A DNA stretch of 64,000 nt from positions 81,486 through 145,485 of the forward strand of contig JAYKHP010000018.1 of NCBI GenBank assembly GCA_035285165.1, read 5' to 3'. Below are positions 1,922-49,600 of this stretch, piece after piece. The notes beneath the pieces are model-generated. The model was not told where the DNA came from and did no database searches. It worked only from the letters and a program-made list of their open reading frames with translations. Numbering within the stretch: the stretch's first letter is position 1; each line of letters starts with the position of its first letter. Source of the stretch: Vampirovibrionales bacterium. Lineage in GTDB: Bacteria > Cyanobacteriota > Vampirovibrionia > Vampirovibrionales > Vampirovibrionaceae. Both the position numbers and the translations under genes were made by a program.

Positions 1922-3511
1922 ATGTCATCGACTTCACCACTTGGGCAAAACCAACAACTTTCACCGGCTGAGCAGCAATTGTTGCAGCAGCTGATCAGTG
2001 CGTCGGGCAGCTTTGACCCAGGTGCCGCGGCGCAGCAGCCGAATCCTTATGCGACGCAGACGCCGTATGCCGATTTGACCCCGCAGGATGTGGCCGCGTT
2101 CAACACGGCAGCCGCAGCGGGCGGCGCTCCGCAAGCCCAGCCGGGCGGTGCGATGCCAGGTGCTGCAATGGATCCTTCCGTTATGGATCCCTCGGCGATG
2201 ATGGCCTTTGACCCGTCGGCGATGGGTGCTGAAGTCCCAGCCCCGCAACAAGGCGGCGGCGGCGGTAAAGTAGCAGCCGGAGTTGGCGCTGGCCTTTTAG
2301 GTACTTGGGCACTGGCCAGTACTATCGCAACTCATCGCGTCAGCGGGGCTATTGCAACAGATTTAGCCAAAACAATGAAAGCGAAGCTGGTCATCAATCC
2401 TTGGAACGCTTTGAAAGCGACTTTCAGCAAAGACGCTGCCGAAACATTCGCCAAAGATAAAGAGAACTTCTTGAAACCTATCAAAAATGCTGCTGACGAT
2501 GCCGCCGAAGGCGTTCAAGGTATTGAACGTGCCAACCTTCAGGAAATGCTTCGATATCATAAAGACGATATGCAAGCTGCATTGAAAAAATATATTGATG
2601 GTGATGACAAAGCACTCGATACCTTACTCACTAAAACAACTGGTTTTGGTGAGGGAAGTGATCTTGGCAATATGCGGTTGTACTTAAAATTAGCCCAAAT
2701 AATTCGAGGCAATCAGAAAACTGACACCGATGTTTCAAAAGCTGCCCTTCAAGCATTACATGATGGCTTGACTGATACAGGTGCAGCTGGCCGTGCTTAT
2801 GATCTGGGCGCCAACTTGGCAAACGCACTGGCTTACAAAAATGGTGGTTCTCTGATTGGTAACCCAACCCAGAAATACTTATCTGCTCTTTATGAGAGTG
2901 ACCTTAATCACGGTATATTCGCGCAAATTGTTTCGGCTAAAGGTGAAATCACTGAAGACGCTTTAAGAACAGCTATTCAGACTGCTGCTAAAGCTAATAT
3001 TGATGATTTAGTTAAGTTAAAAGCAATACTTAACGAATTACCTGACGGTGCGCCGCTTAAATCACTTGCTGATTATGTTCCAAAAATCCAAGCGGCAGGC
3101 ACTGCCCAAGCAGGCTTGAAGGCAGATTTGGCGCACGTCATTGATAAACCGGATGACGCAGCTATCAAACGTTTGGCTAGTTTTGTAAGGGCTCACGAAA
3201 ATGGCTTGGCTTCTATATTAGAAACCGCCGTGAATGAAGCCAGAACTACTACGGGAGTTAGTAATAGTGCTTTGGAAAAGCTCCATAAATTTACTGAAGC
3301 TGAACGTAAGGCTGATCCTAACTCACCAATCATCCAGCTGGTAGATGAGGCTGTTGCAAAAATCAAGGCTTCACCTGATCCGGTTCTGAGAGACCCTGGC
3401 CTGTTGCAAGTTGAACAAAAAATCCAAGCCTTGAAGGATGGTGCCTACTCTCAACGCGGTTACTCACAATCAGTATTCGGTACCGATGGCCACACATTAA
3501 CCTGGAACTAA
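1922..3511 (+). CDS. hypothetical protein with Q/A/P-rich N-terminus, DPS(V/A)M repeats and one hydrophobic segment
   Basis: 529-aa ORF with an ATG start. It has a low-complexity N-terminal ~110 aa, a Gly-run followed by a TM-like segment, then an alpha-helical-looking body. No recognisable family. Confidence 0.6.
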   Translation: MSSTSPLGQNQQLSPAEQQLLQQLISASGSFDPGAAAQQPNPYATQTPYADLTPQDVAAFNTAAAAGGAPQAQPGGAMPGAAMDPSVMDPSAMMAFDPSAMGAEVPAPQQGGGGGKVAAGVGAGLLGTWALASTIATHRVSGAIATDLAKTMKAKLVINPWNALKATFSKDAAETFAKDKENFLKPIKNAADDAAEGVQGIERANLQEMLRYHKDDMQAALKKYIDGDDKALDTLLTKTTGFGEGSDLGNMRLYLKLAQIIRGNQKTDTDVSKAALQALHDGLTDTGAAGRAYDLGANLANALAYKNGGSLIGNPTQKYLSALYESDLNHGIFAQIVSAKGEITEDALRTAIQTAAKANIDDLVKLKAILNELPDGAPLKSLADYVPKIQAAGTAQAGLKADLAHVIDKPDDAAIKRLASFVRAHENGLASILETAVNEARTTTGVSNSALEKLHKFTEAERKADPNSPIIQLVDEAVAKIKASPDPVLRDPGLLQVEQKIQALKDGAYSQRGYSQSVFGTDGHTLTWN

Positions 3512-3523
3512 ACACTTTATGTT

Positions 3524-3558
3524 CACCAAGCCCCTCATGCTATATCAGGGGCTTGGTG
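3524..3558 (+). terminator. stem-loop downstream of the 1922..3511 gene (terminator candidate)
   Basis: 'CACCAAGCCCCT catgctatat cAGGGGCTTGGTG' forms a 12-13 bp perfect stem 13 nt after the stop codon. There is no clear U-tract. Confidence 0.4.
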
Positions 3559-3704
3559 CTTCATAAACCTTCACCAGCATTCAGATTTATATTCTTTGAT
3601 AGTGTGCATGGCGTTCAAAGCTTAAATTGGTTTTTGGTAGCTATTTGCATCTCACTATCCTGAAGGGGTAACACTTTTAAAAGCTTATCGGAGAATGCCT
3701 TACT

Positions 3705-4859
3705 ATGTCTTTAGGATCACAACCGGCCGCCGGCACGCCAGTGCAACAAATGCCTTTTTCTCCTTCCACAGATGCGGCAACCTCTAGCACTAACTCACCC
3801 TATTCCAGCCCTATTGTTGCCGACCCGTTCGCCAGCAATGACTCTGTTTCCCTTGGAGAAAAGAAAAAACGTCCATGGGGCGCAATTATCGGGGGCAGTA
3901 CGTTAGCGACGCTGGCTGTTCTTGCAGGTGTGGCAAGGCATAATACCAAGCCAATTCGGGAAGCGGGTGGTGAACTTGCTGAAAAAATTAAGTGGTATGA
4001 CCTAAGAAACGCTTTTTCAGGCGAGGCAAAAATCAAGGCTCGCTATGCGCCGGAAGCTGAAAAAACGGTACCTGAAGCGGGCGAGACGGTTGAAAAAGCT
4101 GCGGATACAGTTTCAGCTCCTACTGTACAAACATTACCCGAAGTACCATACGGCCTGCGTACACTAAGATTAGCCACAAGCCAAGGGATCCAGCCCGAAA
4201 GTCTGGCAGATGTTTTAACACACGCTCGTTTACCGCAAACTGCAAGCCCTGTTCAAATCGCACAGGCTTTAGGTTTACCGGCTAACCCCAGCGCCACTGC
4301 CATTTCGCATAAACTTAGAATTATCCCTAACCTGGATTTCCGCGCCGGTTTAGTGGACGACCTGTTATCCAGGTTTGGACATAACACTGACACAATTGCT
4401 GTTCAGACTCGACTGGAAAAAAGTAATTTACCTATGCTTCCCAAATGGACACAAAATCTTGCCGACGGCGAGCAGTTGGTTCGTATTGAGCATAATGGTT
4501 ATGCTTTCTGGGCAACAAAGACCGATATCGAATCAGGCAAGGCGTTTAACTACCGAAATACCGCTAAAAAATTCAGCCATCAGGATATTACATTGAACGC
4601 TGGTGACAAATTCCCAATCATAGAAAATAGTCCACAACCCAAAATAGTTGGGGAATATACAGTCCCAGCCTCTACATCGGCACCACCCAGCGGTGGAAGT
4701 TCCGGGCCAACCGGTGGCGCTTTTACGGGCCCAGGGGGAAGAGCAGCAGGGCCAGGTACACCACCAGCGCCTGCTTCTTCTGGACGAGAAAGAGTTGCTG
4801 ACGCTATAAAAGATATTCCTGGACTTGGATGGCTAGCAAGACGGCTGAGAAATTCTTGA
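3705..4859 (+). CDS. hypothetical membrane-anchored protein with G/P-rich C-terminal tail
   Basis: 384-aa ORF. It has an S/T/P-rich N-terminus, one TM segment ('AIIGGSTLATLAVLAGVA'), and a C-terminal PSGGSSGPTGG low-complexity region. Confidence 0.55.
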   Translation: MSLGSQPAAGTPVQQMPFSPSTDAATSSTNSPYSSPIVADPFASNDSVSLGEKKKRPWGAIIGGSTLATLAVLAGVARHNTKPIREAGGELAEKIKWYDLRNAFSGEAKIKARYAPEAEKTVPEAGETVEKAADTVSAPTVQTLPEVPYGLRTLRLATSQGIQPESLADVLTHARLPQTASPVQIAQALGLPANPSATAISHKLRIIPNLDFRAGLVDDLLSRFGHNTDTIAVQTRLEKSNLPMLPKWTQNLADGEQLVRIEHNGYAFWATKTDIESGKAFNYRNTAKKFSHQDITLNAGDKFPIIENSPQPKIVGEYTVPASTSAPPSGGSSGPTGGAFTGPGGRAAGPGTPPAPASSGRERVADAIKDIPGLGWLARRLRNS

Positions 4860-13737: not shown

Positions 13738-14697
13738 TTAGGACAGCACCTTGCTTTCTGAAGCATTCACACGCTGGCCTTTGAAGCACTCTTCCAAAAG
13801 ATCGGGCATATATTTGAACATGCCCACCGGCATAAAATGAAAATGCGGATTGAGCGGCTGGATTTTGGCTACGAGATCGGCGCAAAACTTTAAGCTCTCT
13901 ATGGCAGGCGCTTCTGAGCGCTCCAAAAGATCAATCAACGATTGGGGAATATTCAGACCCACCACCGAATGGTTCATACGCCTGGCAGCCTCGGCAGACT
14001 TTGGCGGAATAATGCCCGTCATTACCACCGGCGTTGGGCATCCCACCATGGCACTCGCTGCGGTCACCGCCTCAAGCATTTCGGCAATAGGCTCCAGCGA
14101 ATAAACCGGCTGGGTCTGGAAGAAATCCACACCGCATTCAAGCTTCTGCTGCAAACGCAACTGCTGGGCACGATTATGCAGCCTGAACGGGTTTAAGGCC
14201 GAGCCTACCGCAAAGCGTGTCCCGCCATTTGGCAAGACGGTCGCGGTGGCGTCCATGCCGTTATTGAGATAGCGCAGCAAGTCCAGTAAACGAACCGAAT
14301 CCAGGTGAAACACCTGCTTGGCCACTTCCTTTTGATCGCCAAGCTGCACCGGATCACCGGTCAGAGCAAGAATATTGCGCAATCCCAACGCGTAGCCGCC
14401 CATTATATCAGCCTGCAGCGCCAAAAGATTTCGGTCACGACAGGTCAACTGCCATACCGTCTCAATGCCGGTGGCCTCCTGAATCAGCTTGCAGGTCGCC
14501 ATTGAACTCATTTTCAGCAGCGCCAACTGACAGTCAGGGACGTTGATGGCGTCCACCCGGCCTTTTAACTGCTCCGCCTGGCGCAATAGCCTGGCCGTAT
14601 CCGTTCCCTTGGGCGGCGAAAGCTCCACCGTCACCAAAGGCTGGCCGGACTGGAGCTTCTCAAGGAAACTGGTTTTGGAACACGCTGCTTCCGTCAT
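13738..14697 (-). CDS. methylenetetrahydrofolate reductase (MetF/MTHFR) family protein
   Basis: 'VTVELSPPKG' corresponds to the MetF 'VSFEFFPPRT' motif. 'ALTGDP' and 'HFHFMPVG' correspond to MetF 'ALRGD' and 'HFYTLN'. 319 aa. Confidence 0.7.
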   Translation of the reverse strand: MTEAACSKTSFLEKLQSGQPLVTVELSPPKGTDTARLLRQAEQLKGRVDAINVPDCQLALLKMSSMATCKLIQEATGIETVWQLTCRDRNLLALQADIMGGYALGLRNILALTGDPVQLGDQKEVAKQVFHLDSVRLLDLLRYLNNGMDATATVLPNGGTRFAVGSALNPFRLHNRAQQLRLQQKLECGVDFFQTQPVYSLEPIAEMLEAVTAASAMVGCPTPVVMTGIIPPKSAEAARRMNHSVVGLNIPQSLIDLLERSEAPAIESLKFCADLVAKIQPLNPHFHFMPVGMFKYMPDLLEECFKGQRVNASESKVLS

Positions 14698-17529: not shown

Positions 17530-17868
17530 ATGGGTTTTTCAGCTAACCAGGCACGATTGATGTCGCTGATTTCAAGGCGAAGCGACCTTGAGCTGGAAGC
17601 GCAGTTCATCAGTCAGCAGCGACTGTACATGGGGAACATGGTCTCCGGGTACTTCAACCTGCACGCCAAGCTGGAACCAGGCTCTCAGGCGGCAAGACTG
17701 CTGGATGCCAAGATCAAACAGCTTCAGCAGGCGGACAAAATGCTGGAGATGCACCTGAATCGGATCAACTCGCAACGCGAGGCCATTAACAAAGAGCAGG
17801 AATCCGTCCAGAAGCTCATCAGCGACAACATCCAGCGCTCCTTCGGCCTTATGGGCGGCGGCAGGTAA
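17530..17868 (+). CDS. hypothetical coiled-coil protein (112 aa)
   Basis: ATG ORF with Q/L/E-rich heptad-like composition. Confidence 0.4.
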   Translation: MGFSANQARLMSLISRRSDLELEAQFISQQRLYMGNMVSGYFNLHAKLEPGSQAARLLDAKIKQLQQADKMLEMHLNRINSQREAINKEQESVQKLISDNIQRSFGLMGGGR

Positions 17869-17965: not shown

Positions 17966-19027
17966 TTGGGAAACAGCATTAAATTAAGCGTCAAGCCGTC
18001 AGGTGAAAGACAGCGAATCAAGCAGGCGGTTTTATCGCTATCCAGATTTACATGGGGCGAAAAAAGCGAACAGTATTGCGATTACCGGCTAGATGGCCAG
18101 TCAGGATCGCATTGGGCGCGGTTAAAGCAGTTCACCAACGGCACGCTCTACGTCGAAGCCTCCGACCTTGAAACGCTGAATACGCTTCAGACGCTAATTT
18201 CTCCTGGCGCGCAGCCTGCACTGGCTGTCGGCGCCGCCGCCCAGCAACAGCTCACGTTGAACCCGACGGTGGCCGACGGCACTAAAATCAGGACAGGCTT
18301 CAGTAAGGCCGTTTCCACCTCCTCGGCAGAGATGCCAAAAGCCGTCAAAAGCGCAAGCACTCGTGGACTCCTGGACATTACCGGCGATTATATCGGAACC
18401 GATGAATCCGGAAAGGGCGACTATTTTGGCCCGCTGGTCATCGCAGGTGTCTGCGTTACGGATAAGACTGTCCCCGTATTGCTGCAATTGGGCGTGATGG
18501 ACAGCAAAAAACTGACCGACAAGCTAATCGGAGGACTGGCGCTTAAAATTATTGAAACCGTGGGAGAATCCGCTGTTTCAATCGTGGAAATCGGCCCAAA
18601 AAAATACAACGCGCTGTATGAAACGATGAAGGCCAGGGGGAAAAACCTCAACCATATGCTCGCCTGGGGCCACGCGACCGTTATCGAGAACCTGCTGGGC
18701 ACTTGCCCCGACTGCACGCAGGCCATTGCCGACCAATTCGGCAACGAGATGTATATCAAGTCGCAACTGAAGGAAAAGGGCAAGGGTATTACGCTGTATC
18801 AGACGCCTCGGGCGGAAGCCAACGTGGGCGTGGCTGCGGCGAGTATTTTGGCCCGACACCGTTTTGTTAACCGGATGCGTCAGCTCAGCGACCGTTTCGG
18901 GGTAAACCTGCCCAAGGGGGCCAGCGGACAGGTCAAGGCCCAGGCGCGGGTATTCGTGTCAAAACACGGCAAGGCCAACCTGGGAGAGGTCGCCAAGCTA
19001 CACTTTAAAACTACGCTGGAATTATAG
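17966..19027 (+). CDS. rnhC: ribonuclease HIII
   Basis: 'GTDESGKGDYFGPLVIAGV' is the RNase HIII-specific catalytic motif (DESGKGD-YFGP). There is an N-terminal extra domain before the RNase H fold. The start is a TTG. Confidence 0.75.
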   Translation: MGNSIKLSVKPSGERQRIKQAVLSLSRFTWGEKSEQYCDYRLDGQSGSHWARLKQFTNGTLYVEASDLETLNTLQTLISPGAQPALAVGAAAQQQLTLNPTVADGTKIRTGFSKAVSTSSAEMPKAVKSASTRGLLDITGDYIGTDESGKGDYFGPLVIAGVCVTDKTVPVLLQLGVMDSKKLTDKLIGGLALKIIETVGESAVSIVEIGPKKYNALYETMKARGKNLNHMLAWGHATVIENLLGTCPDCTQAIADQFGNEMYIKSQLKEKGKGITLYQTPRAEANVGVAAASILARHRFVNRMRQLSDRFGVNLPKGASGQVKAQARVFVSKHGKANLGEVAKLHFKTTLEL

Positions 19028-19040
19028 CGGTCATATAAAC

Positions 19041-19069
19041 TTGTCCATGCCTTGCCTCTTGGCTATAAT
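19041..19069 (+). promoter_or_regulatory. sigma70-type promoter (TTGTCC - 17 bp - TATAAT)
   Basis: The -35 TTGTCC lies at 19041..19046, followed by an exact 17-bp spacer and a consensus -10 TATAAT at 19064..19069. This is the first promoter after the rnhC stop. Confidence 0.5.
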
Positions 19070-19089
19070 CGTCTGACGGTTTATACCCT

Positions 19090-19198
19090 TTCGATTGGGA
19101 AATCCGGTGAAATGCCGGGGCTGTGCCGCAACTGTGACCTGATTCGCTCATCAAGCATTCTATTGAAGCATCTTCAGGAAGCCAGAACGCCAATCGAA
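19090..19198 (+). ncRNA. candidate cobalamin (B12) riboswitch aptamer
   Basis: The core 'GGGAAATCCGGTGAAATGCCGGGGCTGTGCCGCAACTGTGA' matches the cobalamin-riboswitch consensus (AGGGAA, CCGG-loop-CCGG hairpin, GCTG..CCGCAACTGT). A B12-box-like 'AAGCCAGAACGCC' lies at 19177..19192. A P1 stem TTCGATT (19090..19096) pairs with AATCGAA (19192..19198) and closes the element. Confidence 0.5.
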
Positions 19199-19431
19199 CG
19201 GGACTTGCCATCCGCTTGCGACGCACAAGCCGGGATGACGCGCTTTTCCTGTCACGCTGCACTTGTATGACCTGCGAGCCCCGCACGTTATTAAGCAAGC
19301 TAACGCCCCTGACAGGTCGAAGGGTCTTCCATTCTCTTGTACAAGCTGGTAATGACACTGGGCCGTGTATCAACGCGTCAACTGCCGTCTCCTCTTGCCC
19401 TAAACGGGCAACGACTAATCCTTCATGAGCT

Positions 19432-20982
19432 ATGCCCATCCAGCCTTTCGCCATTCAAAGCATTCTTCCGTTTAAGAATAACCCCACTCAGCCAAACGAC
19501 GTGGGGCGTCAAACGGTGCCTGACGAAACCGCCAGAGGCAATAGCTTTGCAGGCGACAGCTTTAAGAGGCCTTTTGATGCCAGTGACAATCAAAAATCGC
19601 TGGTGCCCATTTCGCCCGTCTCGGCAAAGGTGCTGGATGCCAACGCGTCCATCTTAACCCCGGAGCCTGAGGATAACGTTGAAGATGATTTTTGCAGTCC
19701 CGTTTCAAGCCTGGGCTCAAAAAAAATCATGGGCCTGTTTGCTGCGGGCGTTGCCGCGGCCGTATTAGGGCGTTCGGTTTTTCAATTGTTCAAAAAAGCG
19801 CCCGAGGCTGCAAAATCCCTTGCCAAAACGGCCGAGAAAAGTTCAAAACAGCAACCGGAAAAACTGCGGGGCGCATTTGCAAGCGATGAGAACCTGGAGC
19901 TATACCCCACCCACCAGCAAAAAGGATTTGCCTCGATATTTATGGCAATGATCTACAACCCAGACAATCGCGGGGCGTTTTTCGGTTACCTGGCCTCGGC
20001 AGCGCTGGGCTATATCGGGGCAAGCCTTGCCCAAGGGATTCAGGAAAGCTGGGTGAGGCGGCAGGAAACGCTGATTCGGGCGAATCTCATCAACCGGATG
20101 CAGCAAGCGTTTCGTAAAAGCATCCACGTTAAGCAAGTGCTGGACACCTCGCTGATGGGTGATGCCGCACGGCAGATTGAAAAGCTTCTGCTGCGGGCGG
20201 GCATTACAAACGCAAAAGGGCTTGTGGCGCCAAATTTAATATCGGCAAGCGCTTTGCTTGAACCCAAGCGCACGCAGCAGGAATATTTTTATCAGCCCAC
20301 GCATCGCGCGGTTCGCGTCGTCACACAGCCGGCATTTGCCCAATTTGGCGCGGGTCTTTTTGAGGCAGGCGGCAATTACCCTGGCAATACAAGCAGTAAC
20401 TTTAATCCGTTAAGGCAAAAATTCAGCGATAACCTGTCGATGCAACGCGGGATTCTCGAATCCGTTATTTTCGGGGCAGGTGTTACTGTTGGCAGCGTTA
20501 TTCAGGGCTTTATCAGGCTTTTAAAAATGCACCTGACGTTGCAGCAGACGCCAAAAAACATCAAGGAGCAAGTGTACCTGACGTTCGACACGGTGGAATC
20601 CTGGTGGCTGACACGGCACCAAAGCCAAAGAAGCTTAATGGTGCTGGGCGGCTTTTTAGCGCTTTCGGCAGCGGCCAAACTCGGCAAGTTGTTTATCGAC
20701 GGCATTCGTGAAGTGGAAGTCACAAGACGAAACGCCCAAACCGAATACCTGTATCAAAAGCACAACTGGCTGACGCAAGACCCAAGCTTCCACCGCATCG
20801 CCGAAGAAGAAGCCCTGCGACACGAGCTTGATATTTTATGGACGCAATTGCCCGCATTGAGAAACGATCCGGTACGGCTGCAAGAGCGCATCCAGACGAT
20901 TCTCACCAACATCGGCAGAAACTCCGCGCCCAAATACTTCCCGATGACGCCTGCGGTCAATCTTGTAGACGCTCGAAGTTAA
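19432..20982 (+). CDS. hypothetical membrane protein (516 aa), downstream of the riboswitch candidate
   Basis: ATG ORF with ~3 hydrophobic segments and Q/R-rich helical regions. No family recognised. Confidence 0.6.
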   Translation: MPIQPFAIQSILPFKNNPTQPNDVGRQTVPDETARGNSFAGDSFKRPFDASDNQKSLVPISPVSAKVLDANASILTPEPEDNVEDDFCSPVSSLGSKKIMGLFAAGVAAAVLGRSVFQLFKKAPEAAKSLAKTAEKSSKQQPEKLRGAFASDENLELYPTHQQKGFASIFMAMIYNPDNRGAFFGYLASAALGYIGASLAQGIQESWVRRQETLIRANLINRMQQAFRKSIHVKQVLDTSLMGDAARQIEKLLLRAGITNAKGLVAPNLISASALLEPKRTQQEYFYQPTHRAVRVVTQPAFAQFGAGLFEAGGNYPGNTSSNFNPLRQKFSDNLSMQRGILESVIFGAGVTVGSVIQGFIRLLKMHLTLQQTPKNIKEQVYLTFDTVESWWLTRHQSQRSLMVLGGFLALSAAAKLGKLFIDGIREVEVTRRNAQTEYLYQKHNWLTQDPSFHRIAEEEALRHELDILWTQLPALRNDPVRLQERIQTILTNIGRNSAPKYFPMTPAVNLVDARS

Positions 20983-20989
20983 GGGTCTT

Positions 20990-21649
20990 CTAAACGCGCA
21001 TGATAGCGGAGCCCTCAAAATTCGGCGTTTTACCGTAATGAGGGTGGATGTGTAGCGGATCATAAATGGAGGGATACAGACCGGATGGCATAGGTCGTGA
21101 ACCATTGGAAGATTGCGGGTAAATGGTCGGCGTCGTTACGGAGACGACATCCAGCGGCTTGGTCGAATTGACATTGTGCTGTAAACCGGCCTGGGAAAAG
21201 GGATTAAGATCGCCCTTAAGATTTGTCTTCTGCGGGCTCTCTTCCGTTTGCGCTTCAGCTTGCGCTTCCATGCGCTCCTTGAGTGACGGAAATTTCTCGA
21301 CAAACCGCTGAGCCATTTTGTCGGCCCATAAGCCTGAATATAACGTGCTGAAGAGAGAGCCTATCGACGCTGTCCAGAAGGCCACCTTCTTGTTGTTGCG
21401 CGTTAATTTTTCAATAAACAGGCCGCTAATGGGAGAAACGACAAAGAATATCGCAGTGCCTGCGATATAAGCAATTGTTTCTTCCACCATCCTCTGCAGA
21501 CGCTCTTTTTGAGCACGCTGCTGGTCGTTCATGTATCTCAAAGCGCCTACCCCCGTGGTAGGGATCAGCCATAACGCCCACATTGTGGGATCTTTGAGAT
21601 TCGGGTTCCTTATAATCCTTTGTGCAATGTTATTTAGCAAATTTCTCAT
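20990..21649 (-). CDS. hypothetical membrane protein (219 aa)
   Basis: ATG ORF. It has two hydrophobic segments separated by a basic Q/R-rich linker, and a P/S-rich C-terminal tail. Confidence 0.55.
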   Translation of the reverse strand: MRNLLNNIAQRIIRNPNLKDPTMWALWLIPTTGVGALRYMNDQQRAQKERLQRMVEETIAYIAGTAIFFVVSPISGLFIEKLTRNNKKVAFWTASIGSLFSTLYSGLWADKMAQRFVEKFPSLKERMEAQAEAQTEESPQKTNLKGDLNPFSQAGLQHNVNSTKPLDVVSVTTPTIYPQSSNGSRPMPSGLYPSIYDPLHIHPHYGKTPNFEGSAIMRV

Positions 21650-21960
21650 AACTCTTATAACCTTAGACCGATACTATTTTGAATGCAACCGGCCAAAGAA
21701 AGTAGCATTTCGGGCGTTTTTCGGTTCTTATACCATGTGAAACCATGCCGTTGAAAAGGGTTTTCGCCTGGCATTATTTTTTTTATAAATTTCAAGTAGT
21801 CAAAGGGATTGCCAGAACTTAAGTATATTTAATTTATATATTTAATATATTACATTTAACCCCTTGAATTCATGTGGAATCAGCCATACTTTTAAGAGGG
21901 TGTTCCGAGCCGGAAATTTAACTGCAATTATTACAATTCTTTACATTTAAGGCGTTTTTA

Positions 21961-23181
21961 ATGCAGGCGCAACTTCAGCAAAAAAGAGACTTAAGGCCCT
22001 ACGCCAGTTCTCTTCTGCTGTCAAAAAAAGCGTTTTCCCCGACAACCTCTTCCAATATAAGGTTTGGTAAAGGATTGGGAGAACAAGGCTTTTACGCCCT
22101 ACTGGGTAAAATAGAAGCACGCCCCCTCCTGGACACGCTGATTAAGGAAATCGTGGGTATCAACCTGTTCAAGATTATCTTTACCCGAAGCAAAGACGAG
22201 CGGCTCGATGTGGGGGTCAGCGAAGTTGGGAACACGGTCGCCTTTGCCGCAGGCGGCTTGGCGGTGGATAAGTCGCTTGCCAGCTTCTATAGAAACGCCG
22301 CAAAAGGCTCGTTAAATCCTGAAACGGCAAGGCGCTTTGGTATCATTGGCCGCTCATTCGCCCTTTACAGCATCATCTTTTCCCTACTTTGGGCCATGCC
22401 GTTCGTCAGGAATTACATCACCAGCCGCCGCATCGGATCCGATCGCTTCACGGACGTCATCAAGAGGCAACAAGGTCCTCGTCAGGCTGAGCAGCAGCAC
22501 CTTAAGCAAAGCCTGGATTATTACAAGCGGCAAATTGCTGGCATTCTCGGTCTGGGTGTTACGGGCACCCTGATTGCAGGCGCCCTCGGCTTTATCGGCA
22601 TTCGACACACGGCAAAACCGGGAAAGATTTTGGGCGAGAAAATACTGGCGCGCCTTTTTCAGGAGAAACCCGCCAGCGTCTGGAAAAAACTGCTGCTGAT
22701 TGAAGAGGGCAGGTTCGCCAATTTCACGGGCTTTCCGGCCCTCCTGTTCTGGGGCGTGCCGGCTTACGGCGGATGGATCCACGCTTCGCGCGACACGTAC
22801 GAGAAAAAAGAGCAGGTCTTAAAGTTCGCCAATTTTGTCGCCTGTTTCTTTGGGCCTTCTCTGCTTCTGAATAAATTTTATGAGAAAAAATTCACGCCGC
22901 TTCTCGGTGCCGAAAAAGCCACGTTTGCCAATATCCAAAAATTAGGTGAGCACACATTGGCTGAACAGGCCATCAAGCAAAAGGCATTGAAATTATGGGC
23001 CGGAAAGAACGGCCTGGGGCTCCTCAGCTCCGTTCTGCTGCTTGGCACCATGCCGCAGTTGATTAACATCCACTTGACCAAGAAACGCTTGCAACGCGCC
23101 CAGCAAGCAGGACGCATCGACATTTACAAACCCTCGCAAGCCCGCCATGTCCTGAACGGAAGCCTGCCCGTAAGAGGCTAA
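21961..23181 (+). CDS. hypothetical polytopic membrane protein (406 aa)
   Basis: ATG ORF with several hydrophobic segments. It is divergent from 20990..21649 across a 310-bp AT-rich spacer. Confidence 0.6.
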   Translation: MQAQLQQKRDLRPYASSLLLSKKAFSPTTSSNIRFGKGLGEQGFYALLGKIEARPLLDTLIKEIVGINLFKIIFTRSKDERLDVGVSEVGNTVAFAAGGLAVDKSLASFYRNAAKGSLNPETARRFGIIGRSFALYSIIFSLLWAMPFVRNYITSRRIGSDRFTDVIKRQQGPRQAEQQHLKQSLDYYKRQIAGILGLGVTGTLIAGALGFIGIRHTAKPGKILGEKILARLFQEKPASVWKKLLLIEEGRFANFTGFPALLFWGVPAYGGWIHASRDTYEKKEQVLKFANFVACFFGPSLLLNKFYEKKFTPLLGAEKATFANIQKLGEHTLAEQAIKQKALKLWAGKNGLGLLSSVLLLGTMPQLINIHLTKKRLQRAQQAGRIDIYKPSQARHVLNGSLPVRG

Positions 23182-23197
23182 AGACAATAAAAGGCGA

Positions 23198-23902
23198 TTA
23201 AACCGGGTAGAACCAGAAATCCCTCAGCGGAGCGCCGACATTCAAGCCCGGCAGGTAAACGACCGGCGAACACATAAAATGAAGCAGTTCGCTATTGCTT
23301 GGCTCTGACGGGGGTTCGTTATAAGCTTGCGCTGGCGCACCGGGCTGGGAAACATCGGCAACAGAAGGAGACCCACCTGCCAACTGGGCCTTTAATTCGG
23401 CAAGCTGTGCCTTCATTTGCTTCAGTTCACCCACCTCGTCCTTCATCTGGTGATATTTCTGCTTACAGGCACTCACCCAGCCTTCAAAAGCGCAGCCGGG
23501 GGCGGTCACCACAAAGGGGGTATCGGGATAATCACGACAAAACTGAGGCCTGTCCTCGTGGACACCACAGCGATTATCCTCGCGAAGATAGCGGCAGTGG
23601 TAAAACACCAGCTCGTCTGGGTTTTCAAAGTCCTCAAGCTTTTTAGCGGCTTCTTTCATCCGCTTGACCAGTCCCGGCACGACTGCCTCGGCATCGTCCT
23701 GGCTGGGATAGGGAACCATGATGGAGAAAAAATTCCGCGCAAATTCGTCTCCCTCAGCCGCACGTTTCATCAATTGTGAAAACGGCTTGCTGGGGGAAGC
23801 TCCCTTACAGCACTCCCCCAGGCTGCAACATTTGGGCAGCGGAATCCCGAAGGCTGTTTCAAAGGCGTTGGCCAAAATGGTGTTCTCTTTCCCGAAACTC
23901 AA
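23198..23902 (-). CDS. YkgJ/UPF0153-family (CxxCxxCC-type zinc/iron-chelating domain) protein with C-terminal coiled-coil extension
   Basis: 'HCRYLREDNRCGVHEDRPQFCRDYPDTP' matches the family block C-x-F/Y-L-x5-C-x-I/V-H/Y-x2-RP-x2-CR-x-F/YP. An N-terminal 'KCCSLGECC' cysteine cluster is present. The start is a TTG. Confidence 0.55.
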   Translation of the reverse strand: MSFGKENTILANAFETAFGIPLPKCCSLGECCKGASPSKPFSQLMKRAAEGDEFARNFFSIMVPYPSQDDAEAVVPGLVKRMKEAAKKLEDFENPDELVFYHCRYLREDNRCGVHEDRPQFCRDYPDTPFVVTAPGCAFEGWVSACKQKYHQMKDEVGELKQMKAQLAELKAQLAGGSPSVADVSQPGAPAQAYNEPPSEPSNSELLHFMCSPVVYLPGLNVGAPLRDFWFYPV

Positions 23903-24031
23903 GGCTTAAAAAATCAAAGCCCGTTCTTTACCCGCTTCCCTATTGTATCGGGCAATATGGGCATCGCAAAGCGAGTGTCGAAAGTTTCAGGTATATGAGG
24001 GAGTTTGTAGAATTTTTAGAAGCAGAATTTG

Positions 24032-24364
24032 TCAGTTCATCTGCAGGGGACGCTTGGCATAGCCTTCCAGCTTCTGGCCGTTCAAGCGAGTCAGAAGATT
24101 GAGCCGCACCATTTCCAACTGCTTAATGGCATCCACACATGCCGCCTCATCAGCAGAACTCATCTTCTGACGGCGAAGCGCATGGTATTGCTCTTCGATA
24201 GCCTGGTTCACCCGCAAAAGATCTTCGAGAACCGCATCCTCGGGACGCTTGGTTTCAGGGCCGGAACGGGCATGCCACAAAAGACCCAACTTGAGTTTGT
24301 CTAAAAACGTTCTGGGCGCCTTATCGCTTGGCGTGTTTTGAAATTTCCGGGTTTGCTCGCTCAT
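24032..24364 (-). CDS. hypothetical protein (110 aa)
   Basis: ATG ORF with a basic helical protein composition. No family recognised. Confidence 0.35.
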   Translation of the reverse strand: MSEQTRKFQNTPSDKAPRTFLDKLKLGLLWHARSGPETKRPEDAVLEDLLRVNQAIEEQYHALRRQKMSSADEAACVDAIKQLEMVRLNLLTRLNGQKLEGYAKRPLQMN

Positions 24365-24645
24365 CTATGACCACCTCACTTGTGCCTCCTTCTCTGGAGG
24401 CGTGTGTATTTCGTTCAGGCTTTCTCAGGCAGGTTTTCTCTCGTGATCCAATTCGCCAGTGGGATAAAAATACAGGGCAATGCTGAGACGCTTCACACGT
24501 CACAAGGTAATAAAAACGATACACTCTCCGTAATTGCGGACTATCTGGGCATGTTATATCTTAGAGATATCACTAGAATATACTTCCTGATATCTTTCGT
24601 CATTATTGAAGCACTATTACGCTATTCAAATTGCCCCAAAAGGCT

Positions 24646-24685
24646 TTGACAAGACTTTGACATCCAAGCTTGTCTTTCATAGCAT
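24646..24685 (+). promoter_or_regulatory. promoter candidate with tandem -35 boxes and an inverted repeat
   Basis: TTGACA lies at 24646..24651 and again at 24657..24662. A 17-bp spacer follows and then TAGCAT (24680..24685). An inverted repeat GACAAG...CTTGTC overlaps the spacer. Confidence 0.35.
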
Positions 24686-24999
24686 GCGCATGTTATTCCC
24701 ATGCTTCAATTGGGTTTTCATAAACAGGGCAAAACAAGCAGCACAAAAATCATTGAGCGGTTTTTATGCCCGTACAGTCCTAAAGAACAAGAAAAAACCA
24801 AGAAAAAAACAAGGCTTAAGCACCCCCCAACATGTTCACACTGTCCGCCAACGCCAGCCATTCGCATCATCATCACCATTACGATCACCACCACCGAGTG
24901 GAGATGATGGCAATCGCTTGCAAGCCTTTTAACCAGTTTAACCAGGACACCAAGCACACGCACGGGTAACGACTTCCAGAAAACATAGCAAACCCGAAC

Positions 25000-26841
25000 T
25001 TGCCACCGCTGTCATCTCCTTCAGCCCTGACCCGACAGCAGGTCTTACGGCAGGTTCTTTTGTTTGCGCCCCTGACGATAAACATGCATCAGCCCCTGTT
25101 TTTTGGAAACATTCACCTCACCATGTACTTGCAGAATCACACCTTCAACTCGACCCAAGCGGCGTTTCAAGCTTACGAAACGCCTGGCGCAAGCCTGAGG
25201 CAAAACGGGCAAAACCAGAGGAACATTCGCTTCGGCAACGCACCCATTCCCCTTCCCCGCTGGATAAAGCCGGTGGATGGGCTGTTTCAAAAAGGTCTCA
25301 ATACCCGCACAAAAGAAATGCTTCTGGAAGACCTGATGGGCTTTGCCCTGTTGCGCACCGGCATCGATCTCTACCGCCAAAGGATTATGGGGGAAGGAAC
25401 GCGGGACAAGCACGGGCACGAGGAGCTCAACATTCCAGCGGCGCGCGAACGACTGCTGAGGGAAGTCTCCTCGATTTTAACCGACAACGTTTCGGGGGGC
25501 ATCTTCGCCTTTGCCATCGCGGTTCTGGCCAATCGATTCACGGGGGCCAAAAACCTTTCCCAGCATTTTGTTTCAGAACAAAGCCTCGCATTGTTTTCAG
25601 ATATCGTCGGCAAGCTTCCGTCCTCCGCTTTTTCGTCCCACAACGCTTTTGAAGAAGCCTTAATCAAGAGCCTGGCCAAAGAGTTCAATATCCCCCAGGC
25701 AGAACTTTGCGAAGTCTATCGCGATTACAGTGCGCAGGCGGGAAAGGTGGCCAAACAGGGATCCCAGCTTCTGAGCGAGCGCGAAGGTAAAATCGCTCGC
25801 CTGATTCGCAAAAATAACCCGCGAGGAGAAAGTTTCTCGCTTGCCCGTCAGGGTATCATCCAGCCGGGTGTCGCCAAGAACTTATTCGAGTTTCCCGAAC
25901 TGCTGGAAGACACCCGGCATTTCCTCAACAAGTTGCCGAAAACGGACACGGGCAGGACAATTGAAACGGTGGCCCAGAAGTTGTTGGCAGACTCGGGAAG
26001 GCTGAACAAGCTTCAATATCTGGGAATTGCATTGGCGCTTGGCCTGACGATGCTCGTTCCCTTCACAATCAACGCCATGACGCGTCATCTTGACGGGATT
26101 GCCAATTATCCTGGCGAAAGAGGCATTCGGGATATGAAGCAGGTCAACCCGAACGATCACGAAGGGCCCGGCAACACCTGGCTTGAAAAACATTTCCCTT
26201 ATATGAGCGAGTTAATCCAGAGGAAAAGCCCGATCCTGCTCTTGCCGCTCCTGCCTTTGGCACTTGCCATGGGGCTTTTCGACACGCGGGCCTTGTCTCG
26301 ATTCGCCTTTAAAGAAGCCTTTAACGCCCCCTGGAAGAAAGCGTTCATCCCGCGTCTAAAAGAAATGTACCAATTCGGCAAAGGCGTCCCTTTTACCACA
26401 CAACAGCAGATGGCCTCCTGCTTCGCCTTCCTGATATTCTCGCGAATGGTCACCGCCCGAAGCGACATCGAGTTTCGTGAGCGCAGCGTGGATTCGTTAT
26501 TGGGCTGGACGACCTGGATTTTGGGAACACCCATTCTCAAGCGCGGCCTGTCGCGCTTATTGGAAAAACAAATGGCGGGCACCCGTTTGTTTAACCGTTC
26601 CGGAGTTTTAAGAACCCGCGCCGAGATTGAACATTTCCCGATCGCGGGCGAGAATCGCAGCAGGAGCCTCAGCGCTCACCTTCTGACACGCTTTTCCAGC
26701 GTGATCTTTACCATTCTGACGCTTGGCATTCTCGAGCCGGTGGCGGCCATTAAGTGGACTGCTCACCAGGGAAAGAAACACGAAGACAAAAAAGAGACGG
26801 CAGGTTTGAACAAGCTTAGCCTGAATAACATTAGCGCGTAA
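25000..26841 (+). CDS. hypothetical membrane protein (613 aa)
   Basis: ATG ORF with multiple hydrophobic segments (e.g. 'ILLLPLLPLALAMGLF'). No family recognised. Confidence 0.6.
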   Translation: MPPLSSPSALTRQQVLRQVLLFAPLTINMHQPLFFGNIHLTMYLQNHTFNSTQAAFQAYETPGASLRQNGQNQRNIRFGNAPIPLPRWIKPVDGLFQKGLNTRTKEMLLEDLMGFALLRTGIDLYRQRIMGEGTRDKHGHEELNIPAARERLLREVSSILTDNVSGGIFAFAIAVLANRFTGAKNLSQHFVSEQSLALFSDIVGKLPSSAFSSHNAFEEALIKSLAKEFNIPQAELCEVYRDYSAQAGKVAKQGSQLLSEREGKIARLIRKNNPRGESFSLARQGIIQPGVAKNLFEFPELLEDTRHFLNKLPKTDTGRTIETVAQKLLADSGRLNKLQYLGIALALGLTMLVPFTINAMTRHLDGIANYPGERGIRDMKQVNPNDHEGPGNTWLEKHFPYMSELIQRKSPILLLPLLPLALAMGLFDTRALSRFAFKEAFNAPWKKAFIPRLKEMYQFGKGVPFTTQQQMASCFAFLIFSRMVTARSDIEFRERSVDSLLGWTTWILGTPILKRGLSRLLEKQMAGTRLFNRSGVLRTRAEIEHFPIAGENRSRSLSAHLLTRFSSVIFTILTLGILEPVAAIKWTAHQGKKHEDKKETAGLNKLSLNNISA

Positions 26842-33973: not shown

Positions 33974-35212
33974 ATGGAGACGTCTCCCGAAAACGCTAAA
34001 GCTGCCAGCAAAAAAGAGGATTTGCGCATCCTTCAGGGCCACGCCTTGGCATATTTTGCCTTTGATATCGGCTATGAGGTCGATTTGGGGAAAGTTAACC
34101 AGCTATTGACCACCCAGCCTGTCCAGCCCATCTCCAGAACCAAGAAAACCCCCAATTACCTGCAATACGCCAAACCGCCGCAAATCGTGCCTTTGGGGCA
34201 AACGGACATTCTTTTCGATACCCAATTCGAGGGACAGGTCAATCCCCAGCCCTCCAGCCCTGATCTGACAGGCGCTTCTCACGGCAACGGAAAACAAGGC
34301 AAGGGACAAATCCAGGCCACCATTTTTGATTTTGGCGCCGTCAGCATTTCGTTTCGATGGCCGCTGGCAGCCCTGGCAGGCTTACAGGATAAGCCTGAAC
34401 AGGGCATCTTGCTTGAAACACTGCCGATTTACAGTAAGCAACTGTTTGAAACCAACCTGGAAGCGGAAGCGTGGCACCAGGTTGAGCGCGTTATGGAACG
34501 CATCCGACCCGCCATCAGCCGACCGCATTTATCCTCGTTAATTGAGGATTATTATGTCTTTATCATCGAAACGCTTTCTCAGCCGCTGCTGGCCCAGGAG
34601 TTGATGACGTCCCACAACGCCACGCTGGCGAAAATTCTTCGTTTTGAAACACAGCCGTTAAGCGTCGAACATCAGCGGGACACGCTCTCCAAGGCGGTAT
34701 CCTATTACGAGGATGACCTGGCGCTGATTGACTGGAACGCCAGCCTGATTTTCGACACCGACTACGCCGACACGCTCAATGTTCTGGAGCTGATGAACGT
34801 CGAGCTTCTTGAGGCCCGGTATATGGACGCTGAACTCGACAAGCGAATCGACGTGTACGAGGAAACCATCGCCAAAAAGCCGTCACACTGGTTTTTACCG
34901 CTCTGGAACCCTTACCGTAAAACCATTGGCGAACTGGCGGCGCTTCGGATTGAAGCGGCCCTGTTGGCCGAACGGGTGGAAAACGCCTTAAAACTGATTG
35001 GCGACCTGTACCTGGCGCGTATCCATACGGCGGCCTGCGAACGCTTTTCAATCAGCGCCTGGGATGAAGCCATTTCAAGAAAGCTCACCATTATCGGCAA
35101 TCTCTACCAGCTTCTAACGGATCGCATCAGCACCACGCAGGGGCAGACGCTGGAGATGATCATCATCCTGTTGATTCTGATCGAAATCCTGCTCAATATT
35201 ACCCCGCATTAA
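33974..35212 (+). CDS. DUF155/RMD1-like protein with C-terminal TM anchor (tentative)
   Basis: 'IFDFGAVSISFRW' resembles the conserved DUF155 block (vFxFxyGxvVfW). The body is long and helical, with a single C-terminal TM 'LEMIIILLILIEILLNI'. Confidence 0.4.
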   Translation: METSPENAKAASKKEDLRILQGHALAYFAFDIGYEVDLGKVNQLLTTQPVQPISRTKKTPNYLQYAKPPQIVPLGQTDILFDTQFEGQVNPQPSSPDLTGASHGNGKQGKGQIQATIFDFGAVSISFRWPLAALAGLQDKPEQGILLETLPIYSKQLFETNLEAEAWHQVERVMERIRPAISRPHLSSLIEDYYVFIIETLSQPLLAQELMTSHNATLAKILRFETQPLSVEHQRDTLSKAVSYYEDDLALIDWNASLIFDTDYADTLNVLELMNVELLEARYMDAELDKRIDVYEETIAKKPSHWFLPLWNPYRKTIGELAALRIEAALLAERVENALKLIGDLYLARIHTAACERFSISAWDEAISRKLTIIGNLYQLLTDRISTTQGQTLEMIIILLILIEILLNITPH

Positions 35213-36590: not shown

Positions 36591-38066
36591 ATGATCTCCC
36601 CCCCTTATACACTTTCCACGATACGCACACCGGCTAACCCGCCGGTTATCTCGGCGCAGGCGGAAAAAATTAGTTTCAGCGGACAAAAACAGGCTGAGCA
36701 AGACCGTAAAACCTTTGCCTACAAGCAAACGCCCTTGGAAAAGCAGGCGCTTTTATCCAGGGCGTATCCTGAAATTTACACCGATAAAACGGGGCATTAC
36801 GCGGGCAATCAGTTTGCGGCCAATCCATTAGCAAACAGCCAGTTTGCGTCACTCGTGCAGGTGCCCGTATTACAGACCCTGCGTGAAGCCGAGGCGAAAA
36901 CACCCGAAAAATCCAAAAACAAGCTGGAAAAATTCGTGTTGCTTGGCCCGGCATTAATGTTGGCGGGCGGCTTAAGCTGGATTCTTAAAGATCGCAACAA
37001 GCTTTTTAACCCGGTATTAAAGCTCCTGAAAAAAGAAGCCCTACCCAAAATACCAAAAGGGGCCGAAACCCTTGAAAAGACCGGTAAAATCCTTTTGGCA
37101 AGCGGTAGCGGCTTGCTCAGCCTCAACGGGATTTCGGCGGGCGTGGTGTCTGATCAGCCCTCAATGGTCGTCAGCAATATCATCCAGTTGATCCCTTCCA
37201 TCCTGATAGGCTTTGTTAAAAAAGACCATCTTAAAAACTTCGCCGCAAGCCTGATGATGCTCACCGGCGCCATGTACACCACCGGCTTTGCCAACGAATT
37301 GAAAAACAAGGAAGACGCCACGCCCGCAAACGAAGTGCGCCGGTATGACATGACGCGCTTCAAGTCGGTGTTTGATCAGAAAAACCAGGCGGGTTTGTTT
37401 GCAAAAGCGGGCATCGCCTTTGAAGAACTCGGAAAAATGTTTTTCTTCACGGCGGTTGATCATGCAAAGCTTCTTCCCAACGCCTACCATAACCTGACCC
37501 AGCATTTCGCCACGGCAAAAGCACCGCAATTTATACCGGCAGGGCAAAACACGCCCGCGCATTTTGCGGCGGTGCCCCAAAAGCGCCAGTCTGGCCAAAC
37601 GTTTGACGATTTGAAAGCCTGGATTAATAAACCCACGGCGGATAAAAGCCAGGTCGCCGCGATCTTTATGATCTTGGGAGCTTTACCCATCGTTCTGTTC
37701 ACGCATAGAAAGCCGGACATCGGTAACAGCGCACTGGTTAAAACGCTGAAAACCATAGGAATGGCCTTTGGCAATCTTTCGCTTTTCAGTATCGCGATCC
37801 ATCGCGATGACATTAAGGGTAAAGCGCCCCTTCTGGGCATTCCGCTTTCCGTTTTTGGCATGGGTAGCAGCACCAACGGTCTTCGTATTGGCATGGGTTA
37901 TACCGGCGAATCGATCAACTCCCTGTTTTTCAGCGACGTTGCCGTTAACGGGGTTGAAACCGGCAACGGCAAAGAGGTAAAAACCATTAAGCCCCCCGAC
38001 CCCGAAAAGTATAACAAGCCAGGCAATAACCCTTTTGCACAGCCCCTGACTTCCGCCCAGGTTTGA
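36591..38066 (+). CDS. hypothetical membrane protein (491 aa)
   Basis: ATG ORF with several hydrophobic segments. No family recognised. Confidence 0.55.
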   Translation: MISPPYTLSTIRTPANPPVISAQAEKISFSGQKQAEQDRKTFAYKQTPLEKQALLSRAYPEIYTDKTGHYAGNQFAANPLANSQFASLVQVPVLQTLREAEAKTPEKSKNKLEKFVLLGPALMLAGGLSWILKDRNKLFNPVLKLLKKEALPKIPKGAETLEKTGKILLASGSGLLSLNGISAGVVSDQPSMVVSNIIQLIPSILIGFVKKDHLKNFAASLMMLTGAMYTTGFANELKNKEDATPANEVRRYDMTRFKSVFDQKNQAGLFAKAGIAFEELGKMFFFTAVDHAKLLPNAYHNLTQHFATAKAPQFIPAGQNTPAHFAAVPQKRQSGQTFDDLKAWINKPTADKSQVAAIFMILGALPIVLFTHRKPDIGNSALVKTLKTIGMAFGNLSLFSIAIHRDDIKGKAPLLGIPLSVFGMGSSTNGLRIGMGYTGESINSLFFSDVAVNGVETGNGKEVKTIKPPDPEKYNKPGNNPFAQPLTSAQV

Positions 38067-49389: not shown

Positions 49390-49423
49390 TCGCTTTAATT
49401 CAAACTATTTTTTAATTGCCAAT

Positions 49424-49465
49424 CAATTGCTCTCAGGCTGTGACCGCGTGAGGGCAATTTTTATT
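49424..49465 (+). terminator. terminator candidate after 48334..49389
   Basis: 'CAATTGCTCTCAGG ctgtgaccgc GTGAGGGCAATT TTTATT' is an imperfect ~11-bp stem followed by a T-rich tract. Confidence 0.4.
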
Positions 49466-49529
49466 GGGAGGATGTTTTTATTACTTTGAGTAGTAGAGAT
49501 AAAGTATAGGCCAGTAAAAGTTCAGACAA

Positions 49530-49547: not shown

Positions 49548-49600
49548 GTATAAAGCTGCCTGTAAATGACCTAAAAAGGAAGTGGAGAGGGGTTGTTGTT

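Follow-up and report, generated by a model that had tools for sequence, protein, structure and literature searches.

What does the leader of a gene for a lineage-specific membrane protein sense, and what does the answer say about the protein? The question arises in the window, by which we mean the whole 64-kilobase (kb) stretch analysed here, positions 81,486 to 145,485 of contig JAYKHP010000018.1 from a Vampirovibrionales bacterium. There, downstream of the RNase HIII gene rnhC, lies a gene for a protein of 516 amino acids (aa), which we call X516, and an initial annotation had read the region between the two genes as a promoter followed by a cobalamin (vitamin B12) riboswitch. All coordinates below are window positions unless prefixed by a locus identifier (L0xx). 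Our analysis makes it likely that 19075-19243 is a functional kissing-loop cobalamin riboswitch with its own promoter, forming the leader of X516 as a single gene, and it makes X516 a likely candidate for a part in B12 supply. The parts of the element and the gene are as follows.

19041..19069, + strand: promoter-like site of sigma-70 type, TTGTCC (19041-19046), 17-nucleotide (nt) spacer, TATAAT (19064-19069)
19075..19243, + strand: cobalamin-riboswitch element (aptamer and 3' regulatory hairpin), 169 nt, matched by Rfam RF01482
19090..19198, + strand: putative ligand-binding core, a four-way junction, from minimum-free-energy (MFE) fold, RNAalifold and pair counts
19090-19098 with 19190-19198, + strand: closing helix of 9 base pairs, TTCGATTGG with CCAATCGAA, from fold and covariation
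19103-19107 with 19115-19119, + strand: P4, loop TGAAATG
19122-19130, + strand: P5/L5, TGTGCCGCA, invariant, so that P5 is uninformative for covariation
19132-19134 with 19183-19185 and 19138-19142 with 19174-19178, + strand: P6, with a 31-nt apical extension
19179..19191, + strand: B12 box (J6/3 region), AAGCCAGAACGCC, conserved in 15 aligned leaders
19209..19237, + strand: L13-type hairpin, CATCC-GCTTG, loop CGACGCA, CAAGC-cg-GGATG, the 3' hairpin of the RF01482 model
19238..19431, + strand: leader spacer of no recognised function, with TTTT at 19244-19247
19432..20982, + strand: X516, the putatively regulated gene, 516 aa, an open reading frame (ORF) whose start is supported by a shared N-terminus

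The leader RNA and its relatives

The RF01482 (AdoCbl) model aligns with 19075-19243 from end to end (model positions 1-149 of 149) at 45.9 bits. The E-value of this match is 2.5e-07 on a local stretch of 521 nt and 3.1e-05 when all 4227 families are run on both strands of the 64-kb window, far under the 1e-3 above which the initial annotation was prepared to give up its proposal. Apart from this element, a single tRNA is all that matches with E < 0.05 in the whole-window search; at gathering thresholds the default Rfam scan of the window returns that one tRNA and no cobalamin family. The promoter-like site agrees with the consensus at 10 of 12 positions, where shuffled sequences are expected to give 0.5 such sites, and it stands where the annotation had read it, 14 nt past the rnhC stop (19027) and about 6 nt ahead of the start of the Rfam match. 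A TATAAT-like hexamer, read by eye and without statistics, is also found just 5' of the aptamer in homologous leaders.

The unconstrained MFE fold recovers the aptamer helices of 19090-19198. Within them the core GGGAAATCCGGTGAAATGCCGGGGCTGTGCCGCAACTGTGA begins at 19097, and the order of core segments is GGGAAA...GGTGAAA...CTGTGCCGCAACTGT. The conserved core nucleotides (GGGAA junction, GGUGAAA L4, CUGUGCCGCAACUGU and the B12 box AGYCMGAAxxCC) are complete in the window, as they are in the 14 leaders aligned with it, and the Rfam alignment of the window shows matching consensus positions for them. The J/P4 core and the B12-box-like motif recognised in the annotation are both found in their places, and the stem that it named P1 is real, with 9 base pairs, although it is the closing helix of the four-way junction. 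Its size estimate of about 110 nt fell short of the 169 nt found here, because the L13 hairpin had gone unrecognised.

Is this element a peculiarity of one contig, or does it accompany the gene? A genome scan for X516 homologues yields 15 loci, all from metagenome-assembled genomes (MAGs) of Vampirovibrionales, Melainabacteria or Cyanobacteriota. Used alone as an nhmmer query, the window aptamer finds matches at 14 of these 15 loci, on the strand of the gene and 200-600 nt upstream of it, and 8 of the 14 places are called RF00174 or RF01689 at the Rfam gathering thresholds (31.5 bits for RF00174, 36.5 for RF01689, 50 for RF01482). Four further loci obtained independently, by exact-protein look-up (L018-L021), all carry an RF00174 match at or above the gathering score, together with full-length matches to the family profile, and the element is present too at the single locus from a metagenome scan (L024). 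These 20 loci, all from Vampirovibrionales/Melainabacteria MAGs, form the orthologue set for the riboswitch count: 19 have the element directly upstream on the same strand, and 12 pass curated cobalamin thresholds, with 32-53.5 bits for RF00174 and 39.5-39.7 bits for RF01689. The co-occurrence with homologues of the downstream gene on which the initial annotation had staked its proposal is therefore found at 19 of 20 loci. A profile built from the orthologous leaders matches the window at 19086-19234 with E = 1.9e-26. The leader group straddles RF00174, RF01482 and RF01689, the window scoring best on RF01482 and its relatives on RF00174 or RF01689. Because 12 of the 20 orthologous leaders that align full-length with the window pass clan gathering scores, we would file the window element at the level of the clan (CL00101), by orthology, and not as a curated member of RF01482.

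Seven of the 20 orthologous leaders, as well as the window, stay below the gathering scores, so that default Rfam thresholds miss lineage-specific riboswitches of this kind. L024 is the extreme case. Its complete family-type element (L024:1098-1228, nhmmer E = 1.5e-21) is reported by no Rfam cobalamin model even at E <= 0.01, probably due to the P4 insertion CCCGGTTGAATGCCGG, and it illustrates that curated models under-detect the riboswitches of this lineage. At another locus, L017 from the Melainabacteria MAG JANRKP010000012, the intergenic region of about 190 nt (L017:5630-5815) holds no trace of a riboswitch, which looks like a natural case of loss or of an element never gained.

The alignment of 15 leaders of X516 homologues, window included (A2), has 33 invariant columns, all of them intact in the window. 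The B12 box reads AG[CT]C[AC]GAAxxCC in all 15 leaders, with columns G99, C101, A105, C108 and C109 invariant. RNAalifold proposes 26 consensus pairs on A2, 16 of them with compensatory double changes; when the closing helix is extended by hand to give 30 pairs, 89% of the cells are paired and 20 of the 30 pairs show double changes, against 34-49% paired when the partners are slid by 1-3 columns. Likewise, the covariation score is 0.441, compared with at most 0.184 for slid partners and at most 0.170 for shuffles, and none of 500 shuffles attains any of the observed pair measures. L013 is misaligned by MAFFT near the B12 box, an effect that lowers these pair counts and does not raise them. The covarying helices are P3, P4, P6 and the L13 stem, including the P4 stem whose covariation the initial annotation had named as a test, and the P6 extension varies from 15 to 63 nt among the family leaders.

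One may ask whether the match could reflect chance resemblance or a coding constraint, for instance from a 147-aa antisense ORF at 19011-19454, with no structured RNA involved. The score lies under the Rfam gathering threshold, and long ORFs overlap the leader on both strands; set against this are the whole-window E-value, the 12 orthologous leaders above curated thresholds, and compensatory changes across 19 other genomes in leaders of differing length where no gene is called. We regard this explanation as extremely improbable, and the antisense ORF was rejected as the cause of conservation, which is structural. Because compensatory pairing and conserved placement in the orthologue leaders go together, we take the RNA to be real and of the cobalamin clan, and the window RNA is almost certainly a genuine B12 riboswitch. 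As judged from sequence, it would be one more cobalamin riboswitch, in a compact form with a short P6 extension and an L13 hairpin.

The L13 hairpin and the expression platform

All leaders carry a second hairpin, L13, 28-70 nt past the B12 box, with the nearly invariant loop cTTGCGAGCACAAg; the motif TGCG(A)GCACA is nearly invariant across 19 leaders, and the stem covaries (CUUG/CAAG, UUUU/AAAA, CCUG/CAGG, CUUG/CAGG). The GCAC(A) of the L13 loop is complementary to (U)GUGC in L5, which in the window places GUGC at 19123-19126; the loop of L004 reads GCAU and would retain a G-U pair. In kissing-loop cobalamin switches of the env8 type, ligand binding stabilises the docking of L5 on L13, and the ribosome-binding site lies in L13 or next to it (PMC5028336). 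By analogy, we infer an L5-L13 kissing loop here. The env8HyCbl/Cbl-II switches (clan CL00101) share with the present family the GGGAA junction, the T-loop-like L4 (GGUGAAA), L5, the B12 box and a short P6 extension, as well as a separate P13/L13 hairpin reached through a single-stranded linker; in env8 (PMC5028336), and likewise in several members of our family, the start codon and the region that binds the ribosome are found at L13 or shortly past it. The family differs from the env8 type in that its L13 loop (CGAGCA) and L5 (UGUGCCGCA) are lineage-specific and, in the window, in the 204 nt that separate L13 from the start codon.

How would the state of L13 be read? Three groups stand out among the leaders. 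In L005, L009, L010, L013 and L015 the start codon stands 6-20 nt past the L13 loop, and the purine-rich 3' side of L13 (CACAAGGAG, CACAGGA and similar) resembles a Shine-Dalgarno region, so that control at the level of translation is suggested. In L004, L008 and L019, L13 is followed by a strong hairpin with a T-run. The third group, with a long spacer and no recognisable terminator, consists of the window, L007/L011, L016 and L020. The hairpins that follow L13 in L003 (~772-800), L004 (5878-5913), L008 (2313-2345) and L019 (7891-7922) share an apical CTTGCAAG. This apical sequence mimics the CUUG/CAAG stem of L13, which suggests a strand exchange between L13 and the terminator, that is, an antiterminator arrangement. 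A related palindrome, CTTGTACAAG, occurs in the window at 19337-19346, with no T-run.

We propose that a corrinoid binds the four-way junction, that L5 then docks on the L13 loop, and that the L13 hairpin would thereby be locked and expression turned off. In the first group of relatives the locked hairpin would overlap the purine-rich ribosome-binding region and the start codon, whereas in the second it would permit the downstream intrinsic terminator to form. For the window, the last step may be an early stop of transcription, or polarity, along the long leader; alternatively, the 5' strand of L13 may enter a long-range pairing with 19343-19353. The MFE fold of the leader does pair these two segments, in place of the L13 stem, a possible competing structure. 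An OFF switch acting through L13 is probable, because L13 lies at the ribosome-binding site or at a terminator in the relatives and because this agrees with established knowledge of the class. An activating (ON) corrinoid switch has reportedly been described. In E. coli, too, a B12-sensing leader precedes a single gene for an envelope protein, btuB. There the logic is that a gene for B12 supply is repressed when B12 is plentiful, as is expected here also. The btuB leader differs in its large peripheral P6 extension of class I, and the two proteins are unlike, BtuB being a TonB-dependent beta-barrel and X516 an all-helical protein with four predicted transmembrane (TM) segments. The present family would offer a compact natural switch, in which relatives appear to read one and the same L13 hairpin either translationally or transcriptionally.

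A number of observations weigh against a functional kissing-loop switch that serves X516 in B12 supply. With 45.9 bits the window element is under the RF01482 gathering score, so that by this measure it falls outside clan CL00101. Its L13 loop, CGACGCA, has one base more than the family consensus CGAGCA, an insertion seen in no other leader. L5 and the L13 loops are invariant, and covariation therefore says nothing on the kissing loop. The window's spacer between L13 and ATG, at 204 nt, is the longest of all leaders (6-157 nt in the others). A scan of 18700-19700 finds no canonical intrinsic terminator, and the T-tract at 19244-19247 amounts to four U's, 6 nt past the hairpin. L017 keeps the order rnhC-X516 and yet has no riboswitch by Rfam or by the family profile, and the divergent members L023, L027 and L029 likewise have no element by either; therefore B12 control is not obligatory for the X516 family. 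Finally, nothing in the X516 sequence or model is like a known transporter or B12-binding fold.

Part of these observations could be explained if the aptamer were intact while the expression platform had decayed or been rewired in the window genome, X516 then being largely independent of B12, or the switch now serving only a short leader transcript or an upstream ORF (uORF). Besides the long spacer, the unique loop insertion and the empty terminator scan, this explanation can draw on the folding of the whole leader, which is no more stable than that of shuffles (z-score -0.72), on the ATG at 19235, which stands 8 nt past the L13 loop where relatives start X516 and opens 11 codons only, and on L017, which shows that loss of the switch is possible in the family. 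Against it, all 33 invariant columns and all helices are intact in the window, the promoter-like site and the aptamer are still correctly placed, and L007/L011, L016 and L020, with spacers of 100-150 nt, keep a perfect L13, which suggests that long spacers are compatible with function. We consider such decay unlikely; nevertheless, the insertion in L13, the long spacer and the lack of a terminator could mean that regulation in the window genome is weakened or rewired. The case for the attenuator that the initial annotation had suspected at the T-tract is weak: the tract is short and set off from the stem, it has no terminator-scan match, and it is not conserved in relatives. An intrinsic terminator in the window was accordingly rejected.

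A different solution for the long leader would be a uORF that starts at L13 and is coupled to X516 by termination and reinitiation, as in Mycobacterium tuberculosis ppe2 (PMC11260477). The reading frame of X516 is open for 70 codons upstream, from a TTG at 19216 inside L13 (or from an ATG at 19267), and is closed by TGA 19426-19428, 3 nt before ATG 19432, which has no Shine-Dalgarno sequence. Such an open frame might stem from uORF coupling or from sequence inserted into the leader. In L012, L014 and L016 an ORF with a Shine-Dalgarno-like sequence at the 3' strand of L13 overlaps the main start with its end (ATGGTAA, ATGA). An ORF bridging L13 and the gene is, however, present in 5 of 11 long-spacer leaders, the window among them, where shuffled spacers give 2.6 +/- 1.3 (P = 0.07, rising to 0.15 and 0.37 under stricter definitions of the start codon), the putative peptides show no conservation, and neither TTG 19216 nor ATG 19267 has a Shine-Dalgarno-like sequence upstream. 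Coupling is thus not established as a family feature by the shuffle test, and as the mode of action of this riboswitch it seems to us unlikely. The atypical class IIb leader of ppe2 resembles the window in being a long leader with an upstream ORF before a lineage-specific gene of uncertain function (PMC11260477); it differs in that PPE2 is unrelated to X516 and in that uORF coupling in the X516 family is without statistical support.

X516, its distant relatives and a possible role in B12 supply

We return to the reading of the element as a functional switch in front of X516. The upstream order of genes is kept in nine loci, with MTHFR and gatA on the minus strand, and o112, rnhC, the switch and X516 on the plus strand. 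The upstream genes are located in the window as follows.

13738-14697, - strand: MTHFR, by Pfam
17530-17868, + strand: o112, a 112-aa ORF (MGFSANQARLMSLISRRSDLELEAQF...), 59-73% identical across Vampirovibrionales
17966-19027, + strand: RNase HIII gene (rnhC), Pfam RNase_HII, E = 1e-29

Downstream of X516 the genes vary among loci and are mostly convergent. Because the upstream order is kept while the downstream genes vary, X516 would be the sole regulated gene, and it is very likely that the riboswitch controls it. The X516 start codon is backed by the N-terminus M(PI)QP, which matches the MQP of L007, L009 and L010. The small ORF o112 always lies ahead of rnhC where it was seen (L004, L005, L007, L009, L010, L011, L015 and L017); it has a coiled-coil-like look and no Pfam or NCBIfam family.

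What kind of protein is X516? The description of a lineage-specific protein with a few hydrophobic segments and no transporter fold, given at the outset, is borne out. A database of 5.8 billion proteins contains 18 relatives, none with a Pfam domain and a single one named, from a "Cyanobacteria bacterium" MAG. Among 1.84 billion cluster representatives searched with a HMMER profile there are 117 relatives, of which about 90 are clear members and about 30 distant ones, in which two query segments match the same target segment; alignment A1, used to query the large protein database once more, gives no new members, and the metagenome scan gives L024 as the one further locus. Wherever a superfamily member carries a name, it comes from a Melainabacteria or Cyanobacteriota MAG. 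The two halves of X516 are homologous, an internal duplication (hhalign probability 90.8%, E = 1.2e-06), with hydrophobic segments at residues 99-117, 182-200, 345-363 and 404-422 and a helix of about 78 residues after each pair. AlphaFold2, run on an alignment of 68 sequences, gives a predicted local distance difference test (pLDDT) score of 73.8 and a predicted template-modelling (pTM) score of 0.64; the predicted model is all-helical, two units of TM-loop-TM each running into the 78-residue helix, with a tail after them. The tail, whose C-terminus reads NIGRNSAPKYFPMTPAVNLVDARS, shows high conservation (consensus NIGRNSAPKYFPMTPxVNLVxARS), and most of the invariant residues lie in the helices after the TM segments and in this tail, not in the membrane. 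The invariant residues include E205, R209, E212 and R216 as well as K419, D423, R426 and E429; H454 does not vary among the 18 closest members, and H291 hardly does. X516 belongs to no family in Pfam (E <= 0.01), NCBIfam (E <= 0.01) or PADLOC, and the same is true of its distant homologues and of their cassette partners, described below. A PDB sequence-profile search with X516 gives nothing under E = 0.2, and Foldseek of the model against the PDB gives a best E of 0.13, with generic helical bundles and coiled coils only.

The link to B12 extends beyond the orthologues. Three distant X516-like proteins (P0095, P0096 and P0108; profile E about 1e-9), from genomes of about 31-32% G+C, are encoded in a conserved three-gene cassette, A-B-C, at these places.

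L022:137-3142: cassette locus, low-G+C genome
L025:4164-7055: cassette locus, low-G+C genome
L028:4218-7059: cassette locus, low-G+C genome

Protein A (207-245 aa) has an N-terminal zinc-knuckle, CPHGxPxGACPxCxG, a Gly-rich linker and a helical region; B, of about 505 aa, is the X516-like protein; and C (171-178 aa) has the motif LAGIYRKxQxPDxFGPL...GGAILEYI. All three loci have an AdoCbl-II aptamer (RF01689) immediately 5' of A, at 42.0, 37.5 and 33.7 bits (gathering 36.5). With a B12 riboswitch ahead of the cassette of the distant branch too, the association with B12 extends to the superfamily as a whole. In Vampirovibrionales, two loci likewise have an A-like ORF just ahead of the unit of switch and X516, L024:189-1028 (E = 9e-14) and L006:4609-5562 (E = 1e-11); the switch is then placed between A and X516, and the copy in L006 has two Cys knuckles. 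The window has no A-like or C-like ORF anywhere in its 64 kb.

A question remains, does X516 bring in B12? Under OFF control X516 would be made when B12 is scarce and would serve the supply of B12; most likely it would be a component of the inner membrane that helps to take up or traffic corrinoid or cobalt. More than once, a conserved pairing of a riboswitch with a gene has given the earliest hint of a new transporter or cofactor-handling protein. BtuM, CbrT/ECF-CbrT, CbiMNQO and CbtAB are membrane proteins encoded behind B12 riboswitches, and it was this position that first led to their being proposed as transporters of corrinoid or cobalt. The pairing described here strengthens X516 as a candidate for a B12 uptake or binding factor, and nothing in its fold points to a transporter. 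X516 is not found in the Pfam or NCBIfam models of BtuB, BtuCDF, ECF-CbrT/BtuM, CbiMNQO or CbtAB, and it has none of the characteristic transporter folds (22-strand beta-barrel, type II ABC permease, 6-TM S-component). That X516 acts specifically in the acquisition of corrinoid or cobalt is conceivable, and we put it somewhat short of an even chance. Comparably tentative is the proposal that X516 and its distant relatives, some with partners A and C, form a membrane system, not recognised before and specific to the non-photosynthetic Vampirovibrionia/Melainabacteria, by which corrinoid or cobalt is acquired or trafficked, with a fold unrelated to BtuB, BtuCDF, ECF-CbrT, BtuM or Rv1819c.

The riboswitch may equally be genuine and in control of X516 while the protein performs a membrane function that is needed, or can be tolerated, only at low B12 and that is separate from the supply of B12 or cobalt; this deserves serious thought, although we hold it to be somewhat doubtful. 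Such a protein could belong to a bypass that works without B12, could remodel the membrane or act as a scaffold, or could have a part in secretion or predation in these predatory or host-associated bacteria. It would fit a protein made up mainly of two long helices and four TM segments, with invariant residues mostly outside the membrane and fold searches that return generic bundles and coiled coils, and it would fit partners A, with its zinc-knuckle and helical region, and C, which are likewise not transporter-like. M. tuberculosis ppe2 is another B12-riboswitch gene of uncertain function (PMC11260477). On the other side, the association is seen in two branches that diverged deeply and use different aptamer subtypes, an argument for a direct connection with the B12 economy. 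Furthermore, it is established knowledge that the large majority of membrane proteins under B12-riboswitch control are components of corrinoid or cobalt transport.

Whichever function applies, B12 sensing is coupled here, in two branches of deep divergence, to a superfamily with no Pfam, NCBIfam or PDB relative. Within the literature library searched there was no paper linking Melainabacteria or Vampirovibrio to a cobalamin riboswitch and none describing the X516 family. X516, with or without A and C, is a clonable candidate for B12 acquisition or management in Melainabacteria, including the gut and algal-predator lineages.

Neighbouring genes and further features

The initial annotation had extended its proposal to the orphan membrane proteins adjacent to X516 (219, 406 and 613 aa). 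These neighbours are not X516 paralogues and show no synteny, and two of them belong to other transcription units. They were rejected as parts of the system: profiles from A1 and from the distant group match X516 alone among the window ORFs, and tblastn gives no downstream synteny. Pfam, applied to 29 larger ORFs of the window, identifies housekeeping genes and orphans, with no B12-dependent enzyme and no known B12 transporter. One further gene was located by Pfam as follows.

38479-39558: hemB/ALAD, by Pfam

The window is unusually rich in lineage-specific orphans, which lie amid the housekeeping genes truB, IMPDH, fumarase, hemB, clpX, tig and alr. Sizeable ORFs of 219-613 aa that have no Pfam family occur at 20990-26841, 1922-4859, 33974-35212, 36591-38066, 40398-41483 and 48334-50716; the three in 20990-26841 (219, 406 and 613 aa) have no NCBIfam family either, and several orphans contain hydrophobic segments. 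The tRNA gene of the window lies at 59434-59505 on the minus strand (66.2 bits), and its anticodon loop, UUGCCAA, indicates a tRNA-Gly(GCC). The RNA of the signal recognition particle (SRP) differs within the order: L009:182-443 is of the large bacterial type (RF01854, 146.6 bits), and SRP RNA of the small type (RF00169) is found at L004:35-133 and L019:15999-16098.

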